Shown piece after piece: positions 2,835 to 23,034 of a DNA stretch of 32,000 nucleotides. Under the pieces are notes generated by a model, which had not been told where the DNA came from, did not search any database, and saw only the letters and a list, made by a program, of their open reading frames with translations. Both the position numbers and the translations under genes were made by a program. The stretch covers positions 45,050 to 77,049 of the forward strand of contig CAZKCI010000027.1 in assembly GCA_964551475.1 (NCBI GenBank), read 5' to 3'. Within the stretch, counting starts at the first letter, position 1. The number at the start of each line of letters is the position of its first letter. Source of the stretch: an uncultured bacterium (GTDB taxonomy: Bacteria > Auribacterota > Erginobacteria > Erginobacterales > CAZKCI01).

Positions 2835-3680
2835 ATGCCCACTGACAACAGCCCCGCGCCGGAAGCCCCTTCCCGCGCTCCCGATTCCGCCGCCGCGACC
2901 GGCCCGTCGCCGCGCGGGAAGATCATCATGGCGGCGGCCGGCGGCCTCCTGGTCGCCGCCGTCATCTTCCTGTTCGTGCAATATCGGACCACCTCCGCCA
3001 GCCTGGAGGCCGAGACCCAGTTGCGACGCTCGGCCGAGCTCCGGGTGAAGACTCAGGAGGATACGCTCGCCCAGCAGATCGGGCAGATCAACCGCCTGGA
3101 AAATCAGCTTCAGGATACCGAGACCAAAAACACCGAGTTTCAGTCCCGGGTCGGCGCCCTGGAGAAAGACCAGGCGATCCTGCAGAGCCGCCTGGAAAGC
3201 GCCGAGGATTCCCGAAAAAAGAGCGAAGAGCGCCTGGCCGAGGAGCAGACAACGGTGACCGAACTCCAGAAACGGACCGGCGAAGACCGGGTGAACCAGG
3301 CCCGGCTCCTCTCTCACATCGAGCGCCTGATGGGAGAGAAGGCGTCGCTCCAGGAGAAGCTGGCCGCGCTGGAAACGGGGAAGGCGGCGGGAGGGGCGGT
3401 GGCCCTACCCGAGGTGGTGGTGAGCGACGGAGAGCGCCCGCGCCGGGCCTTCGAGGGCGCGATCCTGGCGGTGAACAAGCGCTATGACTTCGTGGTTTTT
3501 AACCTCGGGGAGAAGGACGGGGTCAAGGCGGGGAGCCGCTGGGATGTCGTCGAAGAAGGTAAAAACATGGGCGAGGTGGTCGCGCGCCGGGTGCTTCCGG
3601 CGATGACGGTAGCCGACGTGGATCCCCGGCAAACGCGATCCGCCCTGAGAAAGAACGCCACCGTCGTCCCTCATGAATAG
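2835..3680 (+). CDS. Single-pass membrane coiled-coil protein with a C-terminal beta-rich 'GAILAVNKRYDFVVFNLGEKDGVKAGSRWDV' domain (similar in style to FlgT/MreC-type C-terminal domains); unknown function
   Basis: TM segment IIMAAAGGLLVAAVIFLFV followed by a long heptad-rich region; strong SD; overlaps the next gene by 8 nt. Confidence 0.8.
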   Translation: MPTDNSPAPEAPSRAPDSAAATGPSPRGKIIMAAAGGLLVAAVIFLFVQYRTTSASLEAETQLRRSAELRVKTQEDTLAQQIGQINRLENQLQDTETKNTEFQSRVGALEKDQAILQSRLESAEDSRKKSEERLAEEQTTVTELQKRTGEDRVNQARLLSHIERLMGEKASLQEKLAALETGKAAGGAVALPEVVVSDGERPRRAFEGAILAVNKRYDFVVFNLGEKDGVKAGSRWDVVEEGKNMGEVVARRVLPAMTVADVDPRQTRSALRKNATVVPHE

Positions 3681-7498: not shown

Positions 7499-8335
7499 TC
7501 ATTCGGTGAATTTAAACAGCGTGATTTCGGGAGGGCAGAGGAAACGGACCGGATAAGGCTTGGACCCGATCCCCCGGTTGACGTAGAGCCAGCCGCCCGG
7601 GAGGGGGAAGAGGCCGCGGAGGAACGGAGAGCGGCCGTAGGATTCGAGGAAACGACCCCAGGCCGGCAGGCCGACCTGTCCGCCATGGGTGTCCCCGGAG
7701 AGCACCAGGTCGGCCCCCTGCTCGATCAGAGCCGGGGCGAGATCGGGGCTGGCGGAGAGGACGACGAGCGGCTCATTCCGAGGAATCCCCTCCAGGGCGG
7801 CGGAGATCCCTCCTTCCCCCCCGTAGTCGACGCCGGCCAGCCAGAAAAAATCCTCCCCGTTCCCGAAGCGCATCTTCAGGCTCTTTCCCCCGATCAGCGA
7901 GAGGCCGGAGCGCTTCCAGAGCAAGACAAAATCGTCTCCCTGGAGGTAAGCCCGGTCGGCGTTCCCCAGGATCCCGTAGCACCACATCCCGGGTCTCAGT
8001 CTCGAAACCAGCCGGGCGACCAGGGGGGCGGCGCGGGAAGATTCGACATAGTCCCCGGTGAAAAGGACGCAGTCCGGATGGAGACGGTTGATCCTTTCGA
8101 TCAGGCTTTTCTCCCGGAACCCCAGCTCCCCGGCGATGTGAAGGTCGGAGACCTGGACGATCCGTCGGCCCTGGAGAACGCGGGCGAGAGCGGGATGGCG
8201 GATGCGGACGGTCGTCACCGTCACCCAGTTCGGCTCGATCACCAGGGCGTCAAAGAGGATAAAGCCGGCCGTGGCGACGGCCGCCAGGCCGAGCAGCGCG
8301 GCCAGAAGAAGGAATTTCGTCGGGGCGGGCCTCAT
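7499..8335 (-). CDS. Metallophosphoesterase (calcineurin-like, YkuE/YaeI-type)
   Basis: N-terminal TM; 'RRIVQVSDLHIAGELG', 'VLFTGDYV', 'YGILGNAD', 'DLVLSGDTHGGQVGLP'. Confidence 0.9.
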   Translation of the reverse strand: MRPAPTKFLLLAALLGLAAVATAGFILFDALVIEPNWVTVTTVRIRHPALARVLQGRRIVQVSDLHIAGELGFREKSLIERINRLHPDCVLFTGDYVESSRAAPLVARLVSRLRPGMWCYGILGNADRAYLQGDDFVLLWKRSGLSLIGGKSLKMRFGNGEDFFWLAGVDYGGEGGISAALEGIPRNEPLVVLSASPDLAPALIEQGADLVLSGDTHGGQVGLPAWGRFLESYGRSPFLRGLFPLPGGWLYVNRGIGSKPYPVRFLCPPEITLFKFTE

Positions 8336-8458: not shown

Positions 8459-8501
8459 GAATAGCCGTCCGCCCCGTTCCAGACGGGCCGGACGGCTATT
8501 C
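8459..8501 (-). terminator. Strong hairpin spanning the stop codon of the 8496-9953 gene (terminator-like, no clear U tract)
   Basis: gaatagccgtccg-c-cccgt-tccag-acggg-c-cggacggctattc: 13-bp perfect stem, one mismatch, 5-bp stem, 5-nt loop. Confidence 0.5.
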
Positions 8502-9953
8502 GACGGTGAGCTTCCCTACTTCCCAGTCCTGGATTTCGGGGTTGGTGTAGGGTTCCTTGATGAAGTCCTGCGGGTAGTTCGGCTGAATGATGTTGGTGAC
8601 TTTCTTATTTTCCACGTCCCAGTCCGCCATCTTGACGTAGTTCAGACCGCCGCCTCCGGTGTCGGCGATGATGTAGAGGCCGGCCCTGACCACGTAGTTC
8701 CCCGGAGGGGAGTCGGGGCTCAGCATCAGCGGGCCGGACTCGACCGCGATCTCCTGGTTCAGCGCCCAATTCCGGATCGGGGGATAGAGGGGGACGTCGA
8801 CGTCGATCCTCCCCGCCCGGTCGAACTCGCGGTAGACGTGGACGAACATCTTGTGGGTCGGGAAGAGGGGGGCGGTGAGCTTGTAGACCACCGAGAGCTT
8901 GAAGACATCGCCCCGTTTCACTCTGGTCGGGCCGTCCAGGCGGACAAAGGTGAGCGAGGGCTCTCCGCTGGGCCCGCCCCGGGAGCGCAGACGGAGCATG
9001 GAGAGATAGAAGCTGAAATCCTTTCCGGGCCGCGGAAGGAAAAGCTTGACCGAGCTGATGGCGGAGATGTTGATCGCCCCGCCCGTGTCCATCATGGGGA
9101 CGACCTCACGGACGGTCTCTCCGGGATTGAACCGGATTTCCTTCTTAAAAAGTCTTCCGCTCTTGTCGTTGATCTGGAGGATGACCCGCCCCCCCTCCCC
9201 CCCGGGAATGCCCTGGAGAGCGATCTCCAGGTTGTCATACAGGGACCAGTCGGCGGTACGGGGGCGGAGGGAGAAATAATTCTCGAGGGCGATCGCCGGG
9301 TATTCCCCTTCCGGTTTGATCGTGACCAGCGCCATGGGCGTGTCCCCTTCCTTGAAGAGCGAGATGGTGGCGCCTCGGGGCTCCCAAAAGATCAGGTCCT
9401 GTTCGCTGGCGAAGGTGACCAGGTCGAACTCGGTCGGCGCGGCGGCCGCTCCTTCCTTCTTCTCCGCCGCCTTGACCGAGATCTTCCCCAGGGCGAAGTT
9501 CTTGATCTCGGTGTTGGTGAGGGGTTCCCGGACAAAACGGACCCCTTTCTCGTCCGCGCTGATTTCCATCAGCCCCATCCGCACCTCGTAGTCTCCCGGC
9601 TCCAGATCGTAGGGGATGGACATCCCGAACGGGCCGACCTCGACCACCTGGCCGACCTCCCAGCGGTTGGTCGGGAAGCGGGGGAAGAAATCGGCGTTGA
9701 CACGGACCTCGTTCTGTCCGGCGGGGACGAAGTGCAGGAAAATCTTCTCGCTCTTGTCCACCGGCGCGGTGAGCTGGAAAAAAGCGGATCCGGTGAAAAA
9801 ATCCCCCTGGGAGGCCTCTGTCTGCATCTGGAAGCTGACGAAGGAAACCCGGGGGGAACCCTGGCGAAGAATGGTTTCAGCGGGGGCGGGCGAGGCGAGG
9901 AGGAGCGCCGCGAGAGACAGAAGCGCAGTCAACCATCCGGATGCAGTCTTCAT
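8496..9953 (-). CDS. Secreted/periplasmic protein with two beta-sandwich-like modules flanking a middle domain; unknown function
   Basis: Start MKTASGWLTALLSLAALLLASPAPAET (signal peptide). Modules end in 'REPLTNTEIKNFALGKISV' and 'KEPYTNPEIQDWEVGKLTV'. Confidence 0.75.
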   Translation of the reverse strand: MKTASGWLTALLSLAALLLASPAPAETILRQGSPRVSFVSFQMQTEASQGDFFTGSAFFQLTAPVDKSEKIFLHFVPAGQNEVRVNADFFPRFPTNRWEVGQVVEVGPFGMSIPYDLEPGDYEVRMGLMEISADEKGVRFVREPLTNTEIKNFALGKISVKAAEKKEGAAAAPTEFDLVTFASEQDLIFWEPRGATISLFKEGDTPMALVTIKPEGEYPAIALENYFSLRPRTADWSLYDNLEIALQGIPGGEGGRVILQINDKSGRLFKKEIRFNPGETVREVVPMMDTGGAINISAISSVKLFLPRPGKDFSFYLSMLRLRSRGGPSGEPSLTFVRLDGPTRVKRGDVFKLSVVYKLTAPLFPTHKMFVHVYREFDRAGRIDVDVPLYPPIRNWALNQEIAVESGPLMLSPDSPPGNYVVRAGLYIIADTGGGGLNYVKMADWDVENKKVTNIIQPNYPQDFIKEPYTNPEIQDWEVGKLTVE

Positions 9954-9981
9954 GATGTCAGCCCCCAGCATGAGGAATCGC

Positions 9982-10114
9982 GTCGATGGGCAAGGGCCAG
10001 GTTATTGGTCTGGTTCATGGGCAAAGTCATGGGGCGCGCAACGTAACAGCCCTGCCATCACTACCGACATTGCCCAGGCCCGAACCTTTGACCTTACCCT
10101 TACCCATTTTACCT
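9982..10114. repeat. Interspersed inverted-repeat element, family E copy 1
   Basis: Left arm 9982-10026 gtcgatgggcaagggccaggttattggtctggttcatgggcaaag; right part from 10079 cccgaacctttgaccttacccttacccattttacc. Left arm matches copy 2 at about 38/45 and copy 3 at 34/45. Confidence 0.8.
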
Positions 10115-11150
10115 ATTTTTTAGGGCCCGTCACCTGGATTTTGCTCACCCGGAACTCCTTGAGCTCCGGGTTCTCATACGGCTGAAAATAGTACTGGAAA
10201 CGGCCGGCGACCTCCAGGGGATGGGCGAGGATCGCTTCCAGGTCGTAGGTACCCGGGGGAAGGTCGGCCGGGAGGGCGACCTCCACCGGGCCGACCTTGA
10301 CCAGCTTGCCCTCCGGCCACTGGCTGGTCGGGAAGGGGGGCGAGACCTCGGCCAGCGTGCGGACATTGCCCTCCCGGCTCAAACGGAGAAGCAGGGTGTG
10401 ATCGGATCCCAGGGGACGGCGGGCGATGAAGTAGAACGATCCCGCAAATTTCTCGCCGGGCGAGGCGGAGGCGGGGAATTCCAGACCCATGAAACGGACC
10501 AGCGCCGTCGACGGCGCTTCCTGGGCGGAAGAGGGAAAACCGATATCGGTGTAATAAAGGACCGTCTCCGAGGAGGGGTCCCAGAGGAAGAAGTTCAGGT
10601 AGCCGATCTTGCTGGCGTCGATCCTCTCCGCGATCTGGCGGACGGGGATCTCGATCCGGCGGGACTGGCCGGGGGCGATCTTCTCCGCCCTCTGGAAGCT
10701 CTGGCCGCCGACGTCCTTGACCTTGACCTTGAGATCGACGTCGAAGGACTGGGGGTTGAAAACCGTGAAGAACAGGGAGGCGGCATCCCTCCAGTCCATC
10801 GTCGGCATGGTGTCGTCGGTCCAGAGGAATCCGGGCGACTGGGAAGGGTAGTAGGTCACCCGGGCCCACTTCTCCGGCGAGTCGAAGGGGCTGTTGACGA
10901 TCTCGAAGCGGGTGCCGGCGGTCACCCAGATCTCGGCGTCTTCGGGTCGGGAGAAATCGCAGCGGAAACCGGCCATGTTCTTCGCCTTGACTCCGGAGAC
11001 GATCGCCACCGGCTCGCGCTTGATCTTTTTCAGCCAGGAGGGCAGCTGGGCGATCCGGTCCTTGAGGAAGAGGCCCAGGACCAGGAGCACCAGGACGACC
11101 CAGGCCGCGGTCATGACCCGGTTGACCCATGTTTTTCTTATGGTTTTCAC
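10113..11150 (-). CDS. Single-pass membrane protein sharing the C-terminal module of the 8496-9953 protein; unknown function
   Basis: N-terminal TM (MTAAWVVLVLLVLGLFL); C-terminal 'KLVKVGPVEVALPADLPPGTYDLEA...PYENPELKEFRVSKIQV' aligns with 'QVVEVGPFGMSIPYDLEPGDYEVRM...PLTNTEIKNFALGKISV' of the neighbour. Confidence 0.75.
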   Translation of the reverse strand: MKTIRKTWVNRVMTAAWVVLVLLVLGLFLKDRIAQLPSWLKKIKREPVAIVSGVKAKNMAGFRCDFSRPEDAEIWVTAGTRFEIVNSPFDSPEKWARVTYYPSQSPGFLWTDDTMPTMDWRDAASLFFTVFNPQSFDVDLKVKVKDVGGQSFQRAEKIAPGQSRRIEIPVRQIAERIDASKIGYLNFFLWDPSSETVLYYTDIGFPSSAQEAPSTALVRFMGLEFPASASPGEKFAGSFYFIARRPLGSDHTLLLRLSREGNVRTLAEVSPPFPTSQWPEGKLVKVGPVEVALPADLPPGTYDLEAILAHPLEVAGRFQYYFQPYENPELKEFRVSKIQVTGPKK

Positions 11151-11221: not shown

Positions 11222-11249
11222 TTGACACGCTTACCTCCGATACTATACA
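11222..11249 (+). promoter_or_regulatory. Putative sigma70-type promoter for the motor-like operon
   Basis: TTGACA (11222-11227), 16-nt spacer, TATACA (11244-11249); GGAAGGAG ribosome-binding region upstream of ATG 11298. Confidence 0.6.
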
Positions 11250-11297
11250 TTGGCGTGAAGAATCCGGCGCCGGAGGCGCAGGAAGGAGACGTTCACG

Positions 11298-12215
11298 ATG
11301 CGCTTGGCTTTCCTGACCATACTCATCCTCGCGACACTTCCGGGCCAAACCCGGGCGCAACAGCCTGACTCCCCGGAGATGGCCGATCGCACCGACCTGG
11401 AGTCCGTCTGGAAGCGCTCCGGACGGACGACCCGGGTCATCGACTACCCCTTCAGCCCCCGCCCCTGGATCTCCAGCGGTCCCGACCTTCGGGACTGGGG
11501 AAACCAGGGCTACATCTTCATCAACCCGCGGATCGAAGACCGGGCGCGGACCCTTCCCGCCCCCACCCCGGAAGAGGGGCTGACCGCCGTGGAAACGGTC
11601 GAAGCGGAGGAGATCGCCCGCATGCTGGAGGAGGAAAAAGGACGGCGGGGGGCCCTGGAGGCGGAGATCAAAGCGGCGCAGGAGGAGCTCCAGGCGGCCC
11701 GGGAGAAAACCGAAGATCAGTCGGCCAAGATCTTGATTCTCGAAAACCAGATCGAGGAGATGGAAAAGCAGAAGGGCGCCGTGACGGCTGAATGGACAGG
11801 GGAGACCGGCGGAACCGGCGGACCGCCAGCCGCCGGACTTATCGTGGAGAAGACGGACACCTACCCGGTCGGTCAGGACCAGAGCCTGTGGTCGATTGCC
11901 GGGCGGGCCGAGGTCTACGGGAACCCCTTCAAATGGCTCCTTCTCTACCACGCCAACCGCGACCAGATCTTCGACCCCGACCTGATCTATCCCGGCATGA
12001 TCCTGATGGTTCCCCGCTATAAGGACCTGGAGGTTTTCCCGCCCCCGCCGGCGGAAGAGAAAGCGGCGGCGACGGAGCCGGCAGAGGAAGGAGCGGCGGC
12101 GGCGACGCCCGCTTTGACGGAGGAAACCCCTGTTGCCAAGCCCCCGGCGACTTCTCCGGCGAACGCCACCCAGGCTCCAGAAATGCCGGCGCCAAATCCG
12201 TCACCTCTGTCCTGA
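11298..12215 (+). CDS. Secreted coiled-coil protein with C-terminal LysM-like peptidoglycan-binding domain
   Basis: Signal peptide MRLAFLTILILATLPGQTRAQ; coiled coil 'EAEEIARMLEEEKGRRGALEAEIKAAQEEL...'; LysM-like 'YPVGQDQSLWSIAGRAEVYGNPFKWLLLYHANRDQIFDPDLIYPGMILMVPR'. Confidence 0.85.
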   Translation: MRLAFLTILILATLPGQTRAQQPDSPEMADRTDLESVWKRSGRTTRVIDYPFSPRPWISSGPDLRDWGNQGYIFINPRIEDRARTLPAPTPEEGLTAVETVEAEEIARMLEEEKGRRGALEAEIKAAQEELQAAREKTEDQSAKILILENQIEEMEKQKGAVTAEWTGETGGTGGPPAAGLIVEKTDTYPVGQDQSLWSIAGRAEVYGNPFKWLLLYHANRDQIFDPDLIYPGMILMVPRYKDLEVFPPPPAEEKAAATEPAEEGAAAATPALTEETPVAKPPATSPANATQAPEMPAPNPSPLS

Positions 12216-12245
12216 TCACCGATCACTGATTACTTTTTACTGTTT
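12216..12245. repeat. Short word repeat related to 5093-5132 (GATCACCGATCACTGATTAC)
   Basis: gatcaccgatcactgattac; the reverse complement shares AATCAGTGATC with AAGCAGTGATC in the 5093 element (10/11). Confidence 0.5.
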
Positions 12246-12258
12246 CTTCCCGGGAGAC

Positions 12259-14358
12259 ATGAGCGCAGTGATCCGATCCCGCATAACCTTTCTGATCCTG
12301 GCCGCCGCCGGCTTCCTCTACGCTCCCCTTCTCCCCTCCCAGCAGAGAGCGGACGAATCCCAGGTGGAGACGGCGCTCCAGCAAAAGCTCCAGTCGATGC
12401 TGGACGTCCTGGTCGGCCCCCAGCGCACAATCGTCGACGTCGACGTCACCCTCCGGGACACCGCCACGGCGAACGAGGTGAGTAACCGCGTCCGCGCAAT
12501 GACATCTCTCTCCGGCGTCCGCACCAGCGTGAAAAAGGAGGAGGCGGGGGCCGCCGACGGAGACCTCCTGGAACCCCTGATCTCGAGCCGCCATATCTCG
12601 GTCCAGGCCGACGAAAAGCTCGCCGCCGAGCTGATCGAGAAGATCAAAACCGAGGTCCCCAAGTGGGCCCGGATCAATCCCGGCCGCGGCGACACCTTCA
12701 AGCTGGAGCTCATTCCCTGGCGGGAGATCGTCTCCCCCCCCTCCGCCACCCAGCAGAACTACCTCCTCTACTCCATTTTGGCCATGGTCGTCCTGCTCAT
12801 CCTGATCGCCGCCATCTACTTCCCCCTGAGAAAGCTCAAGATGCCGGAGACAACCCCCCCGGGAGCAATCCCCGGAACACCGGCCGCACCCCGAGGACCG
12901 GGCGAAGAGGCCGCCGGAGGCCCCGGTGAAGAAGAAAAGCGCAAACAGCGCACCGAAGAACTCGATGAATTGAAGCAGGTCTTCGCCGGGGCGGCGAACA
13001 TCGACCAGAGCGGCGTCCTGGAGGAGATCAGGAACATGATCGAGAAGGGCCTCTCCCGCACGCCGGCCCAGATCGACTCAATCCTGGAGGAGATCAAGGA
13101 CATCCTCTCCAAGACCCCCCAGGAGTCGGACACACTCCTGACCGAGATCCGCGACACGCTGGCCGACATGCTGGATGCCCAGAAGAAGCTCACGGCGATG
13201 GGCGGGCTGGGCGCGGGAACCGGGACCGGCGCGGCGGCCCCGGGCGCCGCGCCCGCCGCCGCGCCGGCCGCCCGGGCGGAAGCCGCGGGGCGGGCCGCCG
13301 GGGACGGCGGCTTCGGCCCCGAGGTGGTCGAGGTCCTGGGCAACATCGAGGACCTGATGGCCCAGCAGTTGGAGAAGACACCGGAGAGCGGCATCCTGGA
13401 CGAGCCCTTCAAGTACCTGAAGACCCTTCCGCCCGAAGACGTCGTCATGCTGGTCGAGGACGAGGAGCCGAAGCTCGCGGCCGCCGTCCTCTCCCAGATC
13501 GACTCCAAATCCGCCGCCGACGTGATGGCGGGGATCGAGGAGGAAAAGCAGTTCGAGATCGCCCGGGCGATGACGGGCCTGGTCGAGACGGAGGACCTGG
13601 CCGAGGAGATCAAGGACTTCCTGGAACGCAAGCTCAAGATCGTCCGCCTGCACAAGGACTACATCCCGGTCCTCGGTTACCGGGTCCTGGCCGACATTCT
13701 GTCCTCCAGCCGCTACGCGGTGGCCCGGGTCCTCCTGGACAAGATGGAGTCCAAGAACCCGGCCATGGCCGCCGAGGTGCGCAAACGGATGTTCCTCTTC
13801 GAGGACGTGGTCACCCTGACCGACAAGGACCTCGAGGCCCTGATCCACAACCTCCCCCGGGAGATGGTCTCCTGCGCCCTGGCCGACTCCCCGGAGGAGA
13901 TCCGGAACAAGTTCCTCCAGAACATGACCGAGCGCGCCCGCCAGATGATCCAGGAGGACATGGAGACGCTGAAGAAGGTCCAGCTCGAGAAGGACGGCAA
14001 GGAGATGAACTTCAACGAGGCCATGCTCGCCCTCGATCAGAACGTGATCGAGGAGATCTTCCGGACGGTGGACCGCAACGTGGTCAAGATGGCCCTGCGC
14101 GGGGGCTCCGACGAGGTGCGGGAGAAGTTCTTCGCGGGTCTGACCGAGCGGGCGGTGGTGATGCTCAAGGAGGACCTGGAGGTGATGGGCCAGATCACGC
14201 GCAAGCGCGCCGACGAGGCTCAGGAAGAGGTGATGAACGTCCTCCGCAAGCTCTCCAGCAAGACGCTGGAGGCCCAGCACGAGATCATCGCCACCATCCG
14301 CAAGCTCGAGAAGGAAGGGCAGATCAGCGTCGAGCGCTTTCAGGAAGAGATGGTTTAG
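12259..14358 (+). CDS. FliF-FliG-like fusion: signal peptide, FliF C-terminal/RBM3-like periplasmic domain, one TM, charged linker, FliG middle domain, duplicated FliG C-terminal motif
   Basis: 'LQQKLQSMLDVLVGPQRTIVDVDVTLRD...IEKIKTEVPKWARINPGRGDTFKLELIPW', TM 'NYLLYSILAMVVLLILIAAIYFPL'; FliG-like 'LPPEDVVMLVEDEEPKLAAAVLSQIDSKSAADVMAGI', 'EEVRKRMFLFEDVVTL'-type motif (here AAEVRKRMFLFEDVVTLTDKDL), 'EEIRNKFLQNMTERARQMIQEDME' and 'DEVREKFFAGLTERAVVMLKEDLE'. Confidence 0.85.
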   Translation: MSAVIRSRITFLILAAAGFLYAPLLPSQQRADESQVETALQQKLQSMLDVLVGPQRTIVDVDVTLRDTATANEVSNRVRAMTSLSGVRTSVKKEEAGAADGDLLEPLISSRHISVQADEKLAAELIEKIKTEVPKWARINPGRGDTFKLELIPWREIVSPPSATQQNYLLYSILAMVVLLILIAAIYFPLRKLKMPETTPPGAIPGTPAAPRGPGEEAAGGPGEEEKRKQRTEELDELKQVFAGAANIDQSGVLEEIRNMIEKGLSRTPAQIDSILEEIKDILSKTPQESDTLLTEIRDTLADMLDAQKKLTAMGGLGAGTGTGAAAPGAAPAAAPAARAEAAGRAAGDGGFGPEVVEVLGNIEDLMAQQLEKTPESGILDEPFKYLKTLPPEDVVMLVEDEEPKLAAAVLSQIDSKSAADVMAGIEEEKQFEIARAMTGLVETEDLAEEIKDFLERKLKIVRLHKDYIPVLGYRVLADILSSSRYAVARVLLDKMESKNPAMAAEVRKRMFLFEDVVTLTDKDLEALIHNLPREMVSCALADSPEEIRNKFLQNMTERARQMIQEDMETLKKVQLEKDGKEMNFNEAMLALDQNVIEEIFRTVDRNVVKMALRGGSDEVREKFFAGLTERAVVMLKEDLEVMGQITRKRADEAQEEVMNVLRKLSSKTLEAQHEIIATIRKLEKEGQISVERFQEEMV

Positions 14359-14359
14359 T

Positions 14360-14560
14360 ATGATCAAACTCACCAGACTGAACGGGCAGGAGATGATCAT
14401 CAACGCCGATCTGATCGAGCTGATCGAGGCGAGGCCTGACACCATCGTCACCATGAACACGGGGGAGAAATACATCGTCCGGGAAGCGGTGGACGACATC
14501 ATCGCCCGGATCTCCCGTTACAAGCAGAGCCTCAGTCAACCCCCACCAACCAACGAATAG
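14360..14560 (+). CDS. flbD: Flagellar protein FlbD/SwrD family
   Basis: 66 aa MIKLTRLNGQEMIINADLIELIEARPDTIVTMNTGEKYIVREAVDDIIARI, immediately before motA. Confidence 0.92.
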   Translation: MIKLTRLNGQEMIINADLIELIEARPDTIVTMNTGEKYIVREAVDDIIARISRYKQSLSQPPPTNE

Positions 14561-14569
14561 GGCTGCTCC

Positions 14570-15325
14570 ATGCGCGCATCCACGATCATCGGCCTCATCG
14601 CAGCTTTTATCATCGTTTTCCTGTCCATTTTTCTCCGGGGGGGGATGCCGATGGTCATGCTTTTCGTCGACATCCCTTCCATGATCCTGACCGGCGGCTG
14701 CACCGTCGCCTGCATGTTCATCAACTTCACGCCCCGCCAGCTCTGGGATGGACTGCTCTCCTTCCGCTATTGCCTGGTGAGCAAGATGGCCACCCCAGCG
14801 GACGTGATCGAGGTCCTGGTAGAAATGGCGGTCAAGGCCCGCAAGGAGGGCTTCATGGCCCTGCGCGAGCTCTCCACCAAGGGGCGCTACCCCCTCCTCG
14901 ACATCGGCGTGGACCTGGTCGCCGACGGGACCGACCCCGAGGTGACCCGGGGCATCCTGGAGACGGTCTCCGACTACATCAACGTCAAGATCTCGGGCGA
15001 AGAGCGTTTCTGGCGAGACATGTCGATCTACGCCCCCTTCTTCGGGATGCTGGGGACGCTGGTGGGACTGATCATGCTTCTGAAGACACTGAAGGACCCG
15101 GAGACGATCGCCCCCAACATGTCGCTCGCCCTGGTCACCACGTTCTATGGCTGCGTCATCGCCGGCATCATTTGCATGCCGGTCGCGGGCAAGATCCACG
15201 TCTACAACACCAACCTGGCCTTGAGCCGCGAGATCATCATCGAAGGGATCGCGTCCATCCAGGCCGGCGACAACTCCCAGATCGTCCGCGAGAAGCTCCA
15301 GGCCTATCTCGCGGGGCTACAGTAA
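14570..15325 (+). CDS. motA: MotA-family ion-channel stator protein
   Basis: 'LFVDIPSMILTGGCTVACMFI', 'REGFMALRELSTKGRYPLLDIGVDLVADGTDPEVTRGILE'-type cytoplasmic domain, 'YAPFFGMLGTLVGLIMLLKTLKDPETIAPNMSLALVTTFYGCVIAGIICMPVAGKI'. Confidence 0.93.
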   Translation: MRASTIIGLIAAFIIVFLSIFLRGGMPMVMLFVDIPSMILTGGCTVACMFINFTPRQLWDGLLSFRYCLVSKMATPADVIEVLVEMAVKARKEGFMALRELSTKGRYPLLDIGVDLVADGTDPEVTRGILETVSDYINVKISGEERFWRDMSIYAPFFGMLGTLVGLIMLLKTLKDPETIAPNMSLALVTTFYGCVIAGIICMPVAGKIHVYNTNLALSREIIIEGIASIQAGDNSQIVREKLQAYLAGLQ

Positions 15326-15354
15326 AAGTAAGGAAGACCGGGGAAACCGGGGGT

Positions 15355-15370
15355 GGGGCGGAAGCGCCCC
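15355..15370 (+). promoter_or_regulatory. Small GC hairpin in the motA-motB intergenic gap
   Basis: ggggcg-gaag-cgcccc perfect 6-bp stem with 4-nt loop; no U tract. Confidence 0.3.
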
Positions 15371-15423
15371 CTCTCGTTTCCGCCGTGGTATATTTCCAGG
15401 AGCAGGTGGAGCGTCGATATCCT

Positions 15424-16245
15424 ATGCCCGTAGAGGACAAGCCGGTTCCGCGCGAACGCAAGCGGGTCAACCCCGACCAGGAGGGCGGCGGGCTCTCCTC
15501 CTCCTGGCCGCCCGTCTGGATGACCACCTACTCCGACATGATCACCAACCTGATGACCTTCTTCGTGCTCCTCTACGCCCTGACCATGGTGAGGATCCCC
15601 TTCGATCTGGTCAAGTTCGCTGAACCGGGAGACAAGCGCATTGTGCCCACCGGCAGCGAGGATTTTTTCTACACCGATGAAACCCAGTCAGCAGATGATA
15701 TCCAGGTTCTGGAGCAGATCGAACGGATGACGGCGGAAGACCGGCTGGCCTTGAGCGAGATGGCGACGTTCCAGGAGCAGGTGGAAGAACTGAAGCGGAC
15801 ACTGGAAAAGGGGAGGCTCGCCGACGGCGTAAAGGTGTTGATCACCGCCGAAGACGTGGTCATTGTCCCTTCCGCGCCCCTGATTTTCGCGGAAGGCTCG
15901 GACCGGATCAAAGAGTCCTTTTTCCCCATCCTCGACCGTCTGGCGGGGCTGATCAAGGATACCAAAGCCTCCGTCCGTATCGAGGGGCACACCGACGACA
16001 CGCCGATCGACCCCCTCCACCGGAACCGTTTCCCCAGCAACTACGAGCTCTCCGCCGCCCGGGCGATCGCCGTCGGCCGCTATTTTATCGAAAAGCACGC
16101 CGTGCCTCCCGAGCGGATCGCCGTGGCCGGCTACGGCCCCCTCCTCCCCCGCTTCCTGGCCAGCGAGCCCGAGAAGCGGGCGCTCAACCGCCGGGTCGAG
16201 TTCCATATTTTCATATCTTCGGCGACCCTCTCGAAAGAGGGCTGA
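15424..16245 (+). CDS. motB: MotB-family stator protein (copy 1) with OmpA-like peptidoglycan-binding domain
   Basis: 'WPPVWMTTYSDMITNLMTFFVLLYAL' (channel Asp) and 'VRIEGHTDDTPIDPLHRNRFPSNYELSAARAIAVGRYFIEKHAVPPERIAVAGYGP...NRRVEFHI'. Confidence 0.9.
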   Translation: MPVEDKPVPRERKRVNPDQEGGGLSSSWPPVWMTTYSDMITNLMTFFVLLYALTMVRIPFDLVKFAEPGDKRIVPTGSEDFFYTDETQSADDIQVLEQIERMTAEDRLALSEMATFQEQVEELKRTLEKGRLADGVKVLITAEDVVIVPSAPLIFAEGSDRIKESFFPILDRLAGLIKDTKASVRIEGHTDDTPIDPLHRNRFPSNYELSAARAIAVGRYFIEKHAVPPERIAVAGYGPLLPRFLASEPEKRALNRRVEFHIFISSATLSKEG

Positions 16246-16250
16246 ACGCG

Positions 16251-17078
16251 ATGGGATCAAAAAGAAAAAGGATGGCCCAGGTGGAGGACAAGGGGCTGTC
16301 CGGCATGTGGCCCCCGGTCTGGATGACCACCTACTCCGACATGGTCACCAACGTGATGGTCTTTTTCGTCATCCTCTCCGCCATGCTCGTCCTCAAGATC
16401 GACGTGACCTTGATCGCCGGGCCAAAGATGCGCGGCGACAAAGAAAGGCCGACCAAGGTGAAAAAGCTAACCGCGGAACAGAAGACCATGGTCGACAATT
16501 TCCGCGCTCTGGAAGAACAGCAGATGCGGGAGGCTGCCTCGGTCACCAAGATGCAGCAGATCGGCGAGGAGATCGCCCAGTATATCCTGAAAGCCAATCT
16601 TCAGAAATTCGTCGTGGTGGAGACGACCAAGTGGAAGGTCAAGGTGGTCCCGCTCACCCCCTTCCTTTTCTCCCCCGGTCGGGCGGTCATCCGCCCGGAG
16701 TCCCGTGACTTCCTCGACCGCCTGGCCAAGTTCTTCAGCATCAACCCCGGCCAGATCCGGATCGCCGGCCATACCGATAACCTGCCCATCTACTCCGCCG
16801 AGTATCGCTCGAACTGGGAGCTCTCCGCCGCCCGGGCGGCCGCCATCATGAGGTATCTGGTGGAAGTCCACGGGCTCGATCCGAAGAGGTTCGTCGCGGT
16901 CGGCTGTGGGCCCTACCAACCGTTGGCGGACAACTCCACGCCGGAAGGGCGCAAGGAGAACCGCCGGGTGGAGATCGAGATCACTCAGGAACCCGAACCG
17001 GCGGGAAAGGCCGCAAAAGGCGGCATGGATGCGGCGGGGACCGCGGACGGCGGGGGGGCGGTCTCTCCGGCGAATTGA
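16251..17078 (+). CDS. motB: MotB-family stator protein (copy 2)
   Basis: 'MWPPVWMTTYSDMVTNVMVFFVILSAMLV' and 'IRIAGHTDNLPIYSAEYRSNWELSAARAAAIMRYLVEVHGLDPKRFVAVGCGPYQP...ENRRVEIEI'. Confidence 0.9.
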   Translation: MGSKRKRMAQVEDKGLSGMWPPVWMTTYSDMVTNVMVFFVILSAMLVLKIDVTLIAGPKMRGDKERPTKVKKLTAEQKTMVDNFRALEEQQMREAASVTKMQQIGEEIAQYILKANLQKFVVVETTKWKVKVVPLTPFLFSPGRAVIRPESRDFLDRLAKFFSINPGQIRIAGHTDNLPIYSAEYRSNWELSAARAAAIMRYLVEVHGLDPKRFVAVGCGPYQPLADNSTPEGRKENRRVEIEITQEPEPAGKAAKGGMDAAGTADGGGAVSPAN

Positions 17079-17323
17079 ACGACGGCCGGGGGGCGCGTCC
17101 AGGACGCTTCGGCCGCCGCGTGGCTTTTGCTGATCTCCAGCGCGCGCCGGATCGACTTCCCGATCTGCCAACCCGCCAGCGCCCCGAGTAGAACGCTCCC
17201 GGCGATCACTCCCATCCAGATCTTAGCCCCGATCCGCATCCTTTCTCGGGGAAAGTGGGAGCGGGTGGAGATCCGTACGCGAACCTTCTGACGCCGGGGC
17301 GGCGCCGAGTCGCTTCCCGTCAT
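16985..17323 (-). CDS. Small single-TM hypothetical protein, translationally coupled to the radical SAM gene and antisense-overlapping the motB copy 2 end
   Basis: ATG at 17323 forms an ATGA overlap with the stop codon at 17320-17322 of the upstream gene; TM 'KIWMGVIAGSVLLGALAGWQIG'. Confidence 0.5.
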   Translation of the reverse strand: MTGSDSAPPRRQKVRVRISTRSHFPRERMRIGAKIWMGVIAGSVLLGALAGWQIGKSIRRALEISKSHAAAEASWTRPPAVVQFAGETAPPPSAVPAASMPPFAAFPAGSGS

Positions 17324-21851: not shown

Positions 21852-21977
21852 GTCGATGGGTCAAGGTTAGGAAATGGGTCTGGTAGATGGGCAAGGTCCA
21901 AGGTGCGTCGGGCCGGCCGGCTCGAACCTAACCCTTACCTCTAGACCAAACCCACTTCTTAACCCTCACCCATCAAC
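21852..21977. repeat. Interspersed inverted-repeat element, family E copy 3
   Basis: Left arm 21852-21896 gtcgatgggtcaaggttaggaaatgggtctggtagatgggcaagg; right arm 21933-21977; 34/45 identical after reverse-complementing. Confidence 0.85.
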
Positions 21978-23034
21978 CAGCTTTTTCCCTGACTACATCC
22001 TTCTCTTTAACATATCCGGCCGCGCAGGCGGAGCAAACGGCCTTCTTCCCCGAGAAGGCCAGCTTGACGCCGCAGCGGCAGATCCAGCCCTGAATCCGGG
22101 CCGGGTTGCCGTAGACCAGGGCGAAGTCGGGGAGATCGCGGGTGACCACCGATCCGGCGCCCACGAAGGCGTAGCGGCCGATGGTGTGGCCGCAGACCAC
22201 GGTGGCGTTGGCGCCGATCGAGGCTCCGCGCTTGACCAGCGTCCGGCGATACTCGTTCTTGCGGGAGACCTCGCAGCGGGGGTTGATCACGTTGGTGAAA
22301 ACCATGGAGGGACCGCAGAAGACGAAGTCCTCCAGCTCCACGTCGTCGTAGACCGAGACGTTGTTCTGGATCTTCACGCCGTTCCCGATCTTCACCCGGC
22401 TTCCCACGTTCACGTTCTGTCCCAGGCTGCAGTTCTCGCCGATCCGCGCCCCGCCCAGGACATGGCTGAAATGCCAGATCTTCGTCCCCTTGCCGATCAC
22501 CGCGCCGGCGTCGACGTAGCTCGATTCATGGACAAAATAATCAGGACCGGCAGGAGAAGAAGAAACAGGACCGGCGGGAGAGGCAGGATGGGCAGGAGCG
22601 GCAGGAGAAACACGAGAAGGTCTTTTCACTATAATTTCAGGTCCTTTCTTGGGCTCGGGTTGAATCAAGGTCTGGCGATAGCGCTTGAGGAGATAAATGG
22701 TTCTTCCACAGAGAGAATCGAGATCCTGGTAAATCTCCGAGGAGAAAAGCTTGTCCTCAATACAATCTTCCAGATCACCGAGAAGTTCTTCCGCTGATCC
22801 CTCGGAAATCTCCAGGAATCTCGCCAATTCCAGCCGGGATTGTCTCCGATAGCCTTCTTGGATATTTTGTTTGATTGAACGGGCGGCGCTGTTCATCTGT
22901 GAAATGCGCCTCATCTCGGAGTGCGGAAATGTTTTTGTAATCCCGAATATCTTTCTCCGTAGTTCCGACGCCGCCTGCCAGAAATGCCATGTACGGTAGC
23001 TCTGGGTCTTGTAATCTTTCTTGGGGCTCTCCAT
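21973..23034 (-). CDS. Fusion: N-terminal four-helix-bundle (S23/IVP-like) domain + low-complexity linker + WbpD-like left-handed beta-helix N-acetyltransferase + C-terminal zinc-ribbon-like CxC...CxxC
   Basis: N-term '[79 protein letters not shown]'; linker '[22 protein letters not shown]'; then '[89 protein letters not shown]'; C-term '[23 protein letters not shown]'. Confidence 0.88.

Follow-up and report, generated by a model that had tools for sequence, protein, structure and literature searches.

To our knowledge, torque generation by FliG and MotAB is regarded as exclusive to flagella, and all the non-flagellar stator relatives that we know of (Exb, Tol, Agl, Gld and Zor) use partners other than FliG. 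In ExbBD-TonB, TolQR-TolA, AglRQS-Glt/Nfs, GldLM-T9SS and ZorAB, a motor of the MotAB family does a job at the envelope that is not swimming, and the targets of AglRQS/Nfs and GldLM are surface polysaccharide coats, adhesins or secretion. Genetically, EPS loci and FliG/MotAB are already linked through stator-FliG control of biofilms and through the EpsE clutch, where a glycosyltransferase of the EPS operon disables a real flagellum. On the rotor side, laboratory FliF-FliG fusions assemble functional rotors, and thus a 1:1 covalent arrangement of the two proteins is mechanically viable. These engineered chains, from Salmonella and Vibrio (PDB 8z4d/8z4g), keep full-length FliF and FliG, including FliG_N.

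Here we describe an operon of an uncultured PVC-group bacterium which, as read from its sequence, has only the torque-making core of a flagellar motor and is located inside a polysaccharide gene cluster. In the window (the whole 32,000-nucleotide stretch of DNA that was analysed), six tightly packed genes occupy positions 11298 to 17078 of the plus strand, all in the same direction and separated, in order, by 43, 1, 9, 98 and 5 bp. The first encodes a secreted LysM/coiled-coil protein of 305 aa with a Pro/Ala-rich tail (11298..12215), and the second a 699-aa fusion of FliF(RBM3), a TM helix and FliG (one middle and two C-terminal domains), which is the putative rotor subunit (12259..14358). 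They are followed by genes for a 66-aa protein of the FlbD/SwrD family (14360..14560), a flagellar-type MotA/PomA stator A subunit of 251 aa (14570..15325) and two MotB paralogues of 273 aa (15424..16245) and 275 aa (16251..17078). The same six genes had been proposed in an initial annotation made from the sequence alone, and all of them were present as described. The dN/dS ratios ranged from 0.20 to 0.49 across the six, which are real genes under purifying selection. A small gene on the minus strand (16985..17323), encoding a single-TM protein, is convergent with the second motB, whose 3′ end it overlaps, and keeps a conserved position; its membership in the module is uncertain.

Gene 2 was identified by Pfam, PDB profile search and Foldseek, and its product starts with a signal peptide or TM1 and continues through a periplasmic domain resembling FliF RBM3 and a TM helix to a linker, FliG_M and two repeats of FliG_C. 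The RBM3-like domain (aa 28-160, 12340..12738, plus strand) has a conserved RGDT motif. No Pfam YscJ_FliF match was found in the window fusion, while distant members of the family gave weak YscJ_FliF_C matches. When the profile of the N-terminal domain was compared with PDB, FliF was the sole match (Salmonella FliF, E = 1e-5; Vibrio RBM3, 6.5e-4), with the alignment covering residues 237-281 and 366-468 of Salmonella FliF. A short variable loop stands where FliF has its beta-collar, and RBM1 and RBM2 are absent too. AlphaFold2 (AF2) modelled the domain as alpha-beta-alpha-loop-beta-alpha-beta with a pLDDT of 70-82; the full-length model of the fusion was poor (pLDDT 57.7). Searched with Foldseek, the fusion model retrieved FliG first and then FliF S-ring/RBM3 entries (TMt ~0.5), so the earlier label of "RBM3-like" is upheld by both the profile and the structural matches. 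The following helix (aa 163-192, 12745..12834, plus strand) is an invariant hydrophobic block that aligns to the TM2 region of FliF. Profile and model together support the assignment of the N-terminal part as a predicted FliF RBM3 plus TM2.

The FliG homology begins at about aa 376, past TM2 and the linker, and no Pfam match to FliG_N was obtained in the fusion. Pfam detected FliG_M (1.5e-10) and, in two stretches, FliG_C (3e-39). The middle domain (aa 376-460, 13384..13638, plus strand) could also be aligned to Thermotoga maritima FliG, with EEPK in place of the EHPQ motif; this FliM-binding motif is not conserved in distant relatives of the fusion, which keep the first Glu alone. The first FliG_C repeat (aa 495-577, 13741..13989, plus strand) is the best Pfam FliG_C stretch and contains the hinge, MFLF, as well as a first segment resembling a torque helix; here M511, F512, F514 and E566 are invariant and D567 is nearly so. 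The torque helix is in the second repeat (aa 587-666, 14017..14256, plus strand), which aligns to T. maritima FliG 139-215, and R614, R631, E638 and D639, the equivalents of E. coli FliG K264, R281, D288 and D289, are invariant or nearly invariant.

A frameshift or an assembly join would have broken the fusion. We found, however, 27 full-length homologues of 686-710 aa from independent assemblies, the dN/dS of the fusion was 0.20, and more distant relatives share the same architecture, which confirms that the fusion is real. The N-terminal domain is rare, with only 18 matches among 1.84 billion cluster representatives, and FliG_M and FliG_C were present in all ten of the longer matches that were scanned. 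The Vibrio FliF-FliG fusion 8z4d was among the PDB matches. In both the natural and the engineered proteins FliF and FliG are joined covalently in one chain; in the natural one, unlike the engineered ones, RBM1, RBM2, the collar, the C-terminal peptide of FliF and FliG_N are deleted, and a linker of ~180 aa is found instead.

As for the remaining genes, the FlbD/SwrD protein matched PF06289 with 4.8e-27 (93.8 bits against a Pfam gathering cut-off of 24.7). MotA aligned over its full length to PomA (5e-39 in PDB), with PomA/MotP being its closest relatives, and the NCBIfam models of PomA, MotP and MotA scored 1e-52 to 1e-27, in comparison to 1e-3 for TolQ. On sequence similarity, the gene 4 product is nearer to MotA/PomA than to ExbB/TolQ and is thus of flagellar type; such stators, MotAB/PomAB, whose A subunit combines a large torque-generating cytoplasmic domain with four TM helices, form the "FIT" clade (PMC12505986). 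The charged pair typical of this subunit is R90/E98 in E. coli MotA and R88, K89/E96 in PomA. The conserved R91 and K92 match R88 and K89 of PomA, and the channel Pro and Thr residues are kept. On the other hand, the position of PomA E96 (E98 in E. coli MotA) is Arg or Lys throughout the family, followed by Glu or Asp, and therefore the rotor-stator interface differs from the canonical one. Both MotB paralogues have WMTTYSDM with the TM Asp, a MotB_plug (7e-11 and 3e-8, Pfam) and an OmpA-like peptidoglycan-binding domain (2e-15 and 9e-21), and the B1 and B2 positions are each occupied by orthologues across loci. The gene 1 product combines a signal peptide and a coiled coil with a LysM domain, for which the support is modest (NCBIfam LysM 4e-8; Kbp LysM 2e-3). 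Identity with Zorya (ZorAB) was rejected: PADLOC gave no ZorA match for the window MotA, no Zor effectors were found nearby, and the ZorB/MotB match was generic (1e-17) and far weaker than the flagellar MotB matches.

The module is thus homologous to the flagellar motor core in every recognisable domain (FliF RBM3 and TM2, FliG_M/FliG_C, PomA-like MotA, MotB and FlbD/SwrD), and its order matches that of fliF-fliG...flbD-motA-motB clusters. It differs in the missing RBM1, RBM2, beta-collar and FliG_N, the degenerate EHPQ motif, the duplicated FliG_C segment, the two obligate MotB paralogues and the Lys/Arg in MotA. Unlike the other non-flagellar 5:2 motors, which have A subunits of the ExbB, TolQ, GldL or ZorA type and no FliG partner, it pairs a flagellar PomA/MotA-type MotA with a FliG rotor. 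Unlike in the EpsE clutch, here it is the rotor and stator genes themselves that the EPS locus contains, without evidence of a flagellum.

The initial annotation had suggested a survey of the gene order, which proved to be invariant (fusion-FlbD-MotA-MotB1-MotB2) in Ca. Auribacterota, Ca. Omnitrophota and some MAGs labelled Planctomycetia. In loci of Auribacterota and Omnitrophota, the gene immediately preceding the fusion is of LysM type and often runs right up to the fusion's start. Neighbours that recur across loci include two paralogues of 49x aa and 34x aa, a metallophosphoesterase, a deacetylase and Bac_transf. In the window, the shorter paralogue is an N-terminally anchored beta-rich protein of 345 aa (10113..11150, minus strand), transcribed divergently from the operon and with no Pfam or NCBIfam match; most family loci that are sequenced far enough show it linked to the motor genes. 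The longer one is a secreted, CBM-like protein of 491 aa with three beta-sandwich domains (8496..9971, minus strand; AF2 pLDDT 77.5), whose model matched in Foldseek the CBM region of a xanthanase (3.5e-9), a GH50 agarase (7e-7) and CBM11 (7e-5), and which is also conserved in synteny. The LpxG/YaeI-like metallophosphoesterase (7499..8335, minus strand) is co-conserved beside the module in Auribacterota, Omnitrophota and locus L008. In another locus (L010) the module also adjoins Wza, Wzz, Wzy and Wzx, and in L092 both motB genes, on one strand, are accompanied by GH123, GT2 and the pair of unknown paralogues.

The glycan-locus setting that had been noted for the window was confirmed, as the minus-strand flanks encode exosortase EpsH/EpsI, Bac_transf, GT2/GT4, deacetylases, Wzx and a radical SAM enzyme. 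With an EpsH match of 2.8e-43 next to EpsI, Bac_transf, GTs and Wzx, the flank, as distinct from the motor, fits an exosortase/PEP-CTERM polysaccharide locus. Exosortase genes flank the module in Auribacterota only and were not found in the Omnitrophota-type loci, so they are not part of its core. The "surface-protein genes" described earlier correspond to the two conserved secreted or membrane-anchored beta-sandwich paralogues, but their function remains unassigned. Across Auribacterota and Omnitrophota, the operon appears from gene neighbourhood to be co-inherited with polysaccharide genes and the two CBM-like proteins, a stronger glycan link than first noted; a functional link to polysaccharide has no basis other than this neighbourhood.

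A sister form of the module was identified on two unrelated contigs, where fusion-MotA-MotB is located directly upstream of giant FG-GAP/Big_5/CHU_C surface proteins. Next in line is a TPR protein, which in L009 matches PorP/SprF weakly and in L091 has TPR alone.

As the operon holds the torque core alone, inside a polysaccharide cluster, it suggests that this core has been re-used for a non-swimming job at the envelope. Set beside the observed domain homologies, missing flagellar parts, conserved torque and ion-pathway residues, purifying selection and cross-phylum synteny, we consider it probable that the module is a flagellum-derived, non-flagellar, ion-driven rotor-stator device acting on envelope glycan or surface polymers. 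The stripped-down envelope motor proposed in the initial annotation is in line with the missing flagellum-connecting parts and the kept torque residues.

It could be argued that these genes are simply the rotor and stator of an ordinary flagellum whose remaining genes are elsewhere in the genome, since every recognisable domain is flagellar and the gene order mirrors canonical clusters (e.g. L041 and L045). One Auribacterota MAG, Ca. Auribacter fodinae, is reported to encode flagella, and the full genome of the window organism was outside our data. On the other hand, the fusion has neither RBM1/RBM2, which house the export gate, nor the beta-collar, FliG_N or an intact FliM-binding motif, and canonical FliG proteins are at most ~32% identical to it. 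As had been claimed, no rod, hook, filament, export, FliM or FliN gene was found in the window, and no other flagellar gene was found within ~10 kb in the family loci examined (12 loci by Pfam gene tables; 25 loci and the window by tblastn with ORFs of canonical clusters), where the genes in cross-phylum synteny with the module are glycan genes, not flagellar ones. Moreover, the module is carried (locus L016) by Ca. Erginobacter occultus, whose MAG 3300035698_653, 95% complete, was published as encoding no flagella (PMC9324843). This evidence for non-flagellate carriers rests on a single publication about related MAGs and does not cover the full gene content of the window organism, yet together these points make a dispersed flagellar motor very unlikely. 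The absence of most flagellar genes around the module and the degenerate FliM-binding motif could also point to a remnant of a lost flagellum that is decaying and no longer has a function, which is hardly credible given the intact reading frames in dozens of assemblies, the dN/dS of 0.2-0.5, and the gene order and MotB duplication kept between Auribacterota and Omnitrophota.

Two further readings concern what the module does. Perhaps it does not rotate at all and is a sensor of ion-motive force or load, or a peptidoglycan tether, that regulates or scaffolds polysaccharide synthesis without mechanical work. Three of the six proteins have peptidoglycan-binding domains (LysM and the two OmpA-like domains), and the charge at the E98 equivalent of MotA is changed. 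Control of biofilms and EPS is known to take input from flagellar stators and FliG (e.g. the EpsE clutch and stator-dependent surface sensing), and a histidine kinase with a GGDEF response regulator adjoins the module in L007, as do response regulators in L091. These regulatory neighbours are, however, not conserved, whereas the torque-helix charges, the MFXF hinge, the MotB Asp and plug and the MotA channel residues are kept over phylum-level divergence, as expected if ion-coupled torque generation itself is selected; we regard a non-rotating device as rather unlikely. Alternatively, the output may be surface translocation (gliding), with adhesins or slime moved along the envelope, rather than polysaccharide export as such. 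Other 5:2 motors (GldLM and AglRQS) drive gliding, and the sister form upstream of FG-GAP/Big_5/CHU_C proteins, with its weak PorP/SprF match in L009, would agree with it. CHU_C, PorP and adhesin genes are, in contrast, absent beside the window variant, which is constantly accompanied by CBM-like proteins and glycan enzymes, and motility data for these uncultured organisms are lacking, so gliding as the output seems unlikely.

Returning to the envelope motor acting on glycan or surface polymers, we propose the following arrangement, in which ring formation, rotation, the coupling ion and the glycan-related output are all inferred. The 699-aa protein is a naturally fused chain in which a minimal FliF (signal peptide or TM1, then the ring-building RBM3 domain and TM2) precedes the middle and C-terminal domains of FliG. 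Judging from the MS and FliG rings as analogues, this protein is expected to oligomerise into an inner-membrane ring whose cytoplasmic face would display the FliG torque helices, two per subunit. The beta-collar stabilises the FliF ring, and with the collar missing from the fusion, ring assembly is not assured. A LysM protein tied to peptidoglycan and ring at once would also hinder rotation. Stators of the MotA5-MotB2 type, each with the PomA-like MotA and the two MotB paralogues, possibly as a B1/B2 heterodimer, and anchored to peptidoglycan, would turn the ring with ion-motive force, FlbD/SwrD assisting. Because export gate, rod, hook, filament, FliM and FliN are all missing from the module, its work would be directed at the periplasmic side of the ring and the conserved partners there, namely the LysM/coiled-coil protein and the two CBM-like beta-sandwich proteins. 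The likely job would be envelope polysaccharide handling (export, extrusion, surface arrangement or glycan-based surface movement), because the module is co-inherited with Wzx/Wzy-type polysaccharide genes, plus exosortase genes in Auribacterota.

No published description of this module was found. We tentatively suggest, without the evidence yet tipping the balance, that it represents the first FliG-MotAB rotor-stator pair outside a flagellum and a new class of envelope motor, i.e. a self-contained rotary machine in which a FliF(RBM3)-FliG ring is driven by MotA5-MotB1/B2, exapted in PVC-related candidate phyla for mechanical work on surface polysaccharide and, in the sister variant, on FG-GAP/CHU_C (T9SS-sorting-type) surface proteins. 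If so, it would be a living example of a minimal rotor and stator functioning without an export apparatus or axial structure, and such an autonomous pair would bear on stepwise-origin models of the flagellar motor. A working module would also offer a simpler, six-gene system for the study of torque, in which FliF and FliG are naturally fused, the torque helix is doubled and MotB proteins are paired, and would mean an unrecognised mechanical step in the surface-polymer and polysaccharide biology of Auribacterota and Omnitrophota, which are poorly known phyla.

Upstream of the operon, a sigma-70-like promoter on the plus strand (11222..11249) could be read directly from the sequence, with TTGACA at 11222-11227, a 16-nt spacer and TATACA at 11244-11249. 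A relative (L011) has TTGACA-16-TATCAT at the same place, so that the -35 hexamer and a -10-like hexamer are kept. The initial annotation called this a good promoter; the hexamers and spacer are indeed present and conserved, but such sites are no more frequent than chance (1 observed in 6.6 kb versus 0.8 expected in shuffled sequence), and the call therefore rests on position and conservation and not on the match alone. The 5′ leader also contains a 10-bp palindrome, CCGGCGCCGG (11264..11273, plus strand), followed by the RBS GGAAGGAG, and this arrangement is shared by the window and L011.

Six plus-strand genes fill positions 11298–17078 of the window (G+C ~63%, with real reading frames told by third-position G+C), separated by intergenic gaps of 43, 1, 9, 98 and 5 bp. 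The first gene (11298–12215) encodes a secreted protein that has a coiled coil and a LysM domain (NCBIfam LysM, 4e-8; Kbp-type LysM, 2e-3), and the second (12259–14358) a 699-aa fusion protein that matched FliG_M (1.5e-10) and FliG_C (3e-39, in two stretches) and is without FliG_N. These are followed by the genes for FlbD (14360–14560; 4.8e-27), a MotA nearest to PomA/MotP (14570–15325; PDB 8brd, 5e-39; TolQ only 1e-3) and two MotB paralogues (15424–16245 and 16251–17078), each with MotB_plug and an OmpA domain. Coordinates and domain matches confirm the co-directional set described in the initial annotation, which had also proposed a survey of its gene order; the order fusion-FlbD-MotA-MotB1-MotB2 (variant 1), with the LysM gene upstream, was invariant in the Auribacterota/Omnitrophota-type family loci examined.

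The putative promoter credited to this operon, TTGACA-16-TATACA at 11222–11249, is present, and a relative with 86% identity (L011) keeps the -35 hexamer, a -10-like hexamer, a palindrome and the RBS. However, the match is not evidence on its own, since one promoter-type site was found where 0.8 was expected by chance. The palindrome kept in L011, CCGGCGCCGG, is a perfect 10-bp one in the operon leader between promoter and RBS (11264–11273), where it might act as an operator or form an RNA stem. At the other end of the operon, a convergent gene (16985–17323, minus strand) encodes a small, basic protein with one TM helix; the gene overlaps the 3′ end of motB2 by ~94 nt and its start abuts the stop of a radical SAM gene. 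In six related loci (L002, L003, L004, L006, L007 and L010), gene callers placed an ORF of 84–117 aa there too, and its product resembles the window protein in its KRK-IRV...TM pattern.

The layout of the fusion was derived from an alignment of 27 homologues and an AF2 model. The full-length model was too poor for inter-domain conclusions (pLDDT 57.7), and only local domain matches were used from it. A hydrophobic N-terminal segment, either a signal peptide or TM1, precedes a periplasmic domain (aa 28–160) modelled as alpha-beta-alpha-loop-beta-alpha-beta with pLDDT of 70–82, a TM helix that is invariant in the alignment (aa 163–192), a linker of ~180 aa that is part helical and part Gly/Ala-rich, and a C-terminal half made of FliG_M and two FliG_C-like repeats. 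Pfam and NCBIfam gave no informative match for the N-terminal half. A profile built from the first 200 residues of 19 family members matched only FliF in the PDB (Salmonella FliF, E=1e-5; Vibrio RBM3 fragment, 6.5e-4); its halves align to Salmonella FliF 237–281 and 366–468, the RBM3 segments that flank the beta-collar and run into TM2, with an RGD motif in common. Foldseek with the fusion model returned FliG at the top and then ~15 FliF S-ring/RBM3 entries (TMt ~0.5). The periplasmic domain is thus a FliF RBM3 homologue, as had been guessed from the sequence, and RBM1, RBM2 and the beta-collar are absent from the fusion.

The FliG part aligned to T. maritima FliG-MC over aa 382–529 and again over aa 590–666; the intervening segment repeats the beginning of the C-terminal bundle. 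The MFXF hinge is kept, reading MFLF, and the torque-helix residues K264, R281, D288 and D289 have their equivalents in R614, R631, E638 and D639; the first FliG_C repeat carries a similar R/K...ED pattern. The FliM-binding EHPQ motif is not conserved, as it reads EEPK in the window fusion and the first Glu alone is kept in distant members. The C-terminal duplication (13741–14256), with two torque-helix-like segments per subunit, is common to Auribacterota and some Omnitrophota, and is missing from the shorter family proteins P0030 and P0032–P0034. A frameshift or an assembly join, which the initial annotation had named as a risk, is ruled out by homologues of the same length in many assemblies, and the fusion is genuine.

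MotA and MotB have the features of a flagellar-type stator, with a departure in the charged pair of MotA. MotA keeps R91/K92 (PomA R88/K89), the channel Pro and the Thr equivalents of PomA T158, T185 and T186. At the position of PomA E96 and E. coli E98 (window MotA residue 99), all variant-1 members have Arg/Lys, followed by Glu/Asp, and the FliG torque helix showed no change that would compensate. L009, one of two loci with a shorter variant of the module (variant 2), has Glu there, as have canonical stators; the other, L091, could not be aligned here. The TM Asp (WMTTYSDM), the plug and the OmpA-like domain are present in both MotBs, which share only ~33% identity. As judged by sequence comparison, the motB duplication is old and both copies were retained, since each MotB pairs with the orthologue in the matching position in all loci.

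Among the full-length homologues of the fusion (n=27; 50–100% identity), those with a name were Ca. Auribacterota, Ca. Erginobacter occultus and "PVC group". The N-terminal domain was found in only 18 proteins among 1.84 billion cluster representatives, and all ten of the longer matches scanned shared the architecture of the fusion, with FliG_C present once in some and twice in others. Searching 185,579 species genomes gave full-length matches in ~15, which belong to Auribacterota/PVC, Omnitrophota and MAGs labelled Planctomycetia; the other 65 returned loci were canonical FliG, with 23–39% identity over the best aligned segment.

The flanks consist of polysaccharide genes, mostly on the minus strand, in agreement with the exopolysaccharide/exosortase setting that had been proposed for the operon. 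They encode GT2, Bac_transf, EpsI, EpsH exosortase, two deacetylases, a metallophosphoesterase, a radical SAM/SPASM enzyme, GT4s, an oxidoreductase, an acetyltransferase and Wzx, beyond which lie PMT_2, IspG, RseP and Dxr. In family loci, the metallophosphoesterase, deacetylase and Bac_transf genes usually adjoin the module, exosortase genes do so in Auribacterota only, and one related locus (L010) additionally has Wza, Wzz, a Wzc-like ATPase, Wzy and Wzx. In most family loci the motor genes are joined by genes for two paralogous proteins, which in the window lie on the minus strand and encode 491 aa (8496–9971) and 345 aa (10113–11150). Auribacterota have this pair upstream of the motor genes and divergently oriented, Omnitrophota-type loci downstream of them. 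Neither paralogue had an informative match in Pfam or NCBIfam; they have a repeated W..G......P..LPPG.Y.L motif in common. Three beta-sandwich domains were predicted in the 491-aa protein (pLDDT 77.5), with modelled folds similar to carbohydrate-binding modules of xanthanase, GH50 agarases and CBM11.

Several minor features of these loci were observed. In L092:2794–9882, a family locus, both motB genes face the opposite way to fusion-flbD-motA, in a minus-strand run that also holds the two unknown paralogues, a GH123 glycosidase and GT2 genes. In an Omnitrophota locus (L007:6494–9160), a histidine kinase and response-regulator-GGDEF pair lies directly upstream of the LysM gene, which hints at c-di-GMP control in that lineage only. 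The hexapeptide acetyltransferase ORF of the window (21973–23034, minus strand) has an in-frame N-terminal four-helix bundle of PF05635 ("23S rRNA-intervening sequence protein"), and local G+C falls to 0.576; since the orthologue in L003 and L004 has only 202 aa and no PF05635 domain, the domain may have come in by insertion or by gene fusion. Before Bac_transf, the window encodes a long coiled-coil protein that is anchored by a TM segment and has weak DUF4407 and SMC-like matches (2835–3680, plus strand); its position is kept in all Auribacterota loci and L010.

Several features that define a flagellar basal body are missing from the module. It also differs from ExbBD, TolQR, AglRQS, GldLM and ZorAB in its flagellar-type MotA and its FliG partner. 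A TolQR/ExbBD-type motor was ruled out by the PomA/MotA-like MotA, and Zorya or another defence system by PADLOC, which found generic MotB similarity only. Covalent linkage of FliF and FliG is compatible with function in laboratory fusions (e.g. PDB 8z4d), but these keep the full-length proteins, whereas the natural fusion is without RBM1, RBM2, collar and FliG_N. The 2025 MotAB diversity survey (PMC12505986) sorts stators into flagellar or generic, and no FliG-paired non-flagellar stator is described in the passages that were searched. No description of the module was found in the literature on FliG/MotA non-flagellar systems, FliF-FliG fusions and Omnitrophota/Auribacterota.

The module shares homology with the core of the flagellar motor and retains torque and ion-pathway residues; it has lost the flagellum-connecting parts and is co-inherited with glycan genes. 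The non-flagellar envelope motor put forward in the initial annotation is a well-founded candidate, namely a flagellar rotor-stator core exapted without a flagellum, with function and rotation being inferred. In the mechanism we propose, the fusion would assemble into a ring in the inner membrane, held together by RBM3 contacts and by FliG ARM stacking. This ring would be turned by a PomA-like MotA5 with a MotB1/MotB2 pair using ion-motive force, possibly of sodium. FlbD/SwrD, which raises motor power in B. subtilis and is predicted, without validation, to bind MotA (PMC13232269), may assist the motor. In the periplasm, the CBM-like partners and the LysM/coiled-coil protein would receive this work and may act on envelope polysaccharide.

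Perhaps the operon is just the motor of a flagellum whose other genes are dispersed elsewhere in the genome. This is unlikely given relatives reported to be without flagella and a fusion that is missing RBM1, RBM2, collar, FliG_N and the FliM site. When 259 ORFs from five canonical flagellar clusters were compared with the window and 25 family loci, nothing matched beyond FliG, MotA, MotB and generic regulators, consistent with the gene survey and the initial annotation, which had seen no further flagellar gene in the window. Among the carriers is the 95%-complete type MAG of Ca. Erginobacter occultus, 3300035698_653 (L016). According to Williams et al. 2022 (PMC9324843), flagella are encoded by Ca. 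Auribacter fodinae but by none of the Ace Lake Auribacterota MAGs. The judgement rests on relatives and protein architecture, and not on the window's own genome content.

Other rivals to the exapted motor are a sensor or tether that does not rotate but regulates EPS, and a decaying relic. Against the relic stands the dN/dS of 0.20–0.49 found for all six genes when the window was compared with L011. A gliding or adhesin motor gains some support from variant 2 (L009:10001–19196 and L091:8552–18081), in which fusion, MotA and one MotB, without FlbD, LysM gene or second MotB, lie directly upstream of genes for FG-GAP/Big_5/CHU_C giant proteins on two unrelated contigs. The giant proteins are followed by a TPR protein; the one in L009 matches PorP/SprF weakly, and that in L091 has TPR only. 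Response regulators are present just upstream of variant 2 in L091, and the L009 contig (5.45 Mb) is probably a complete genome.
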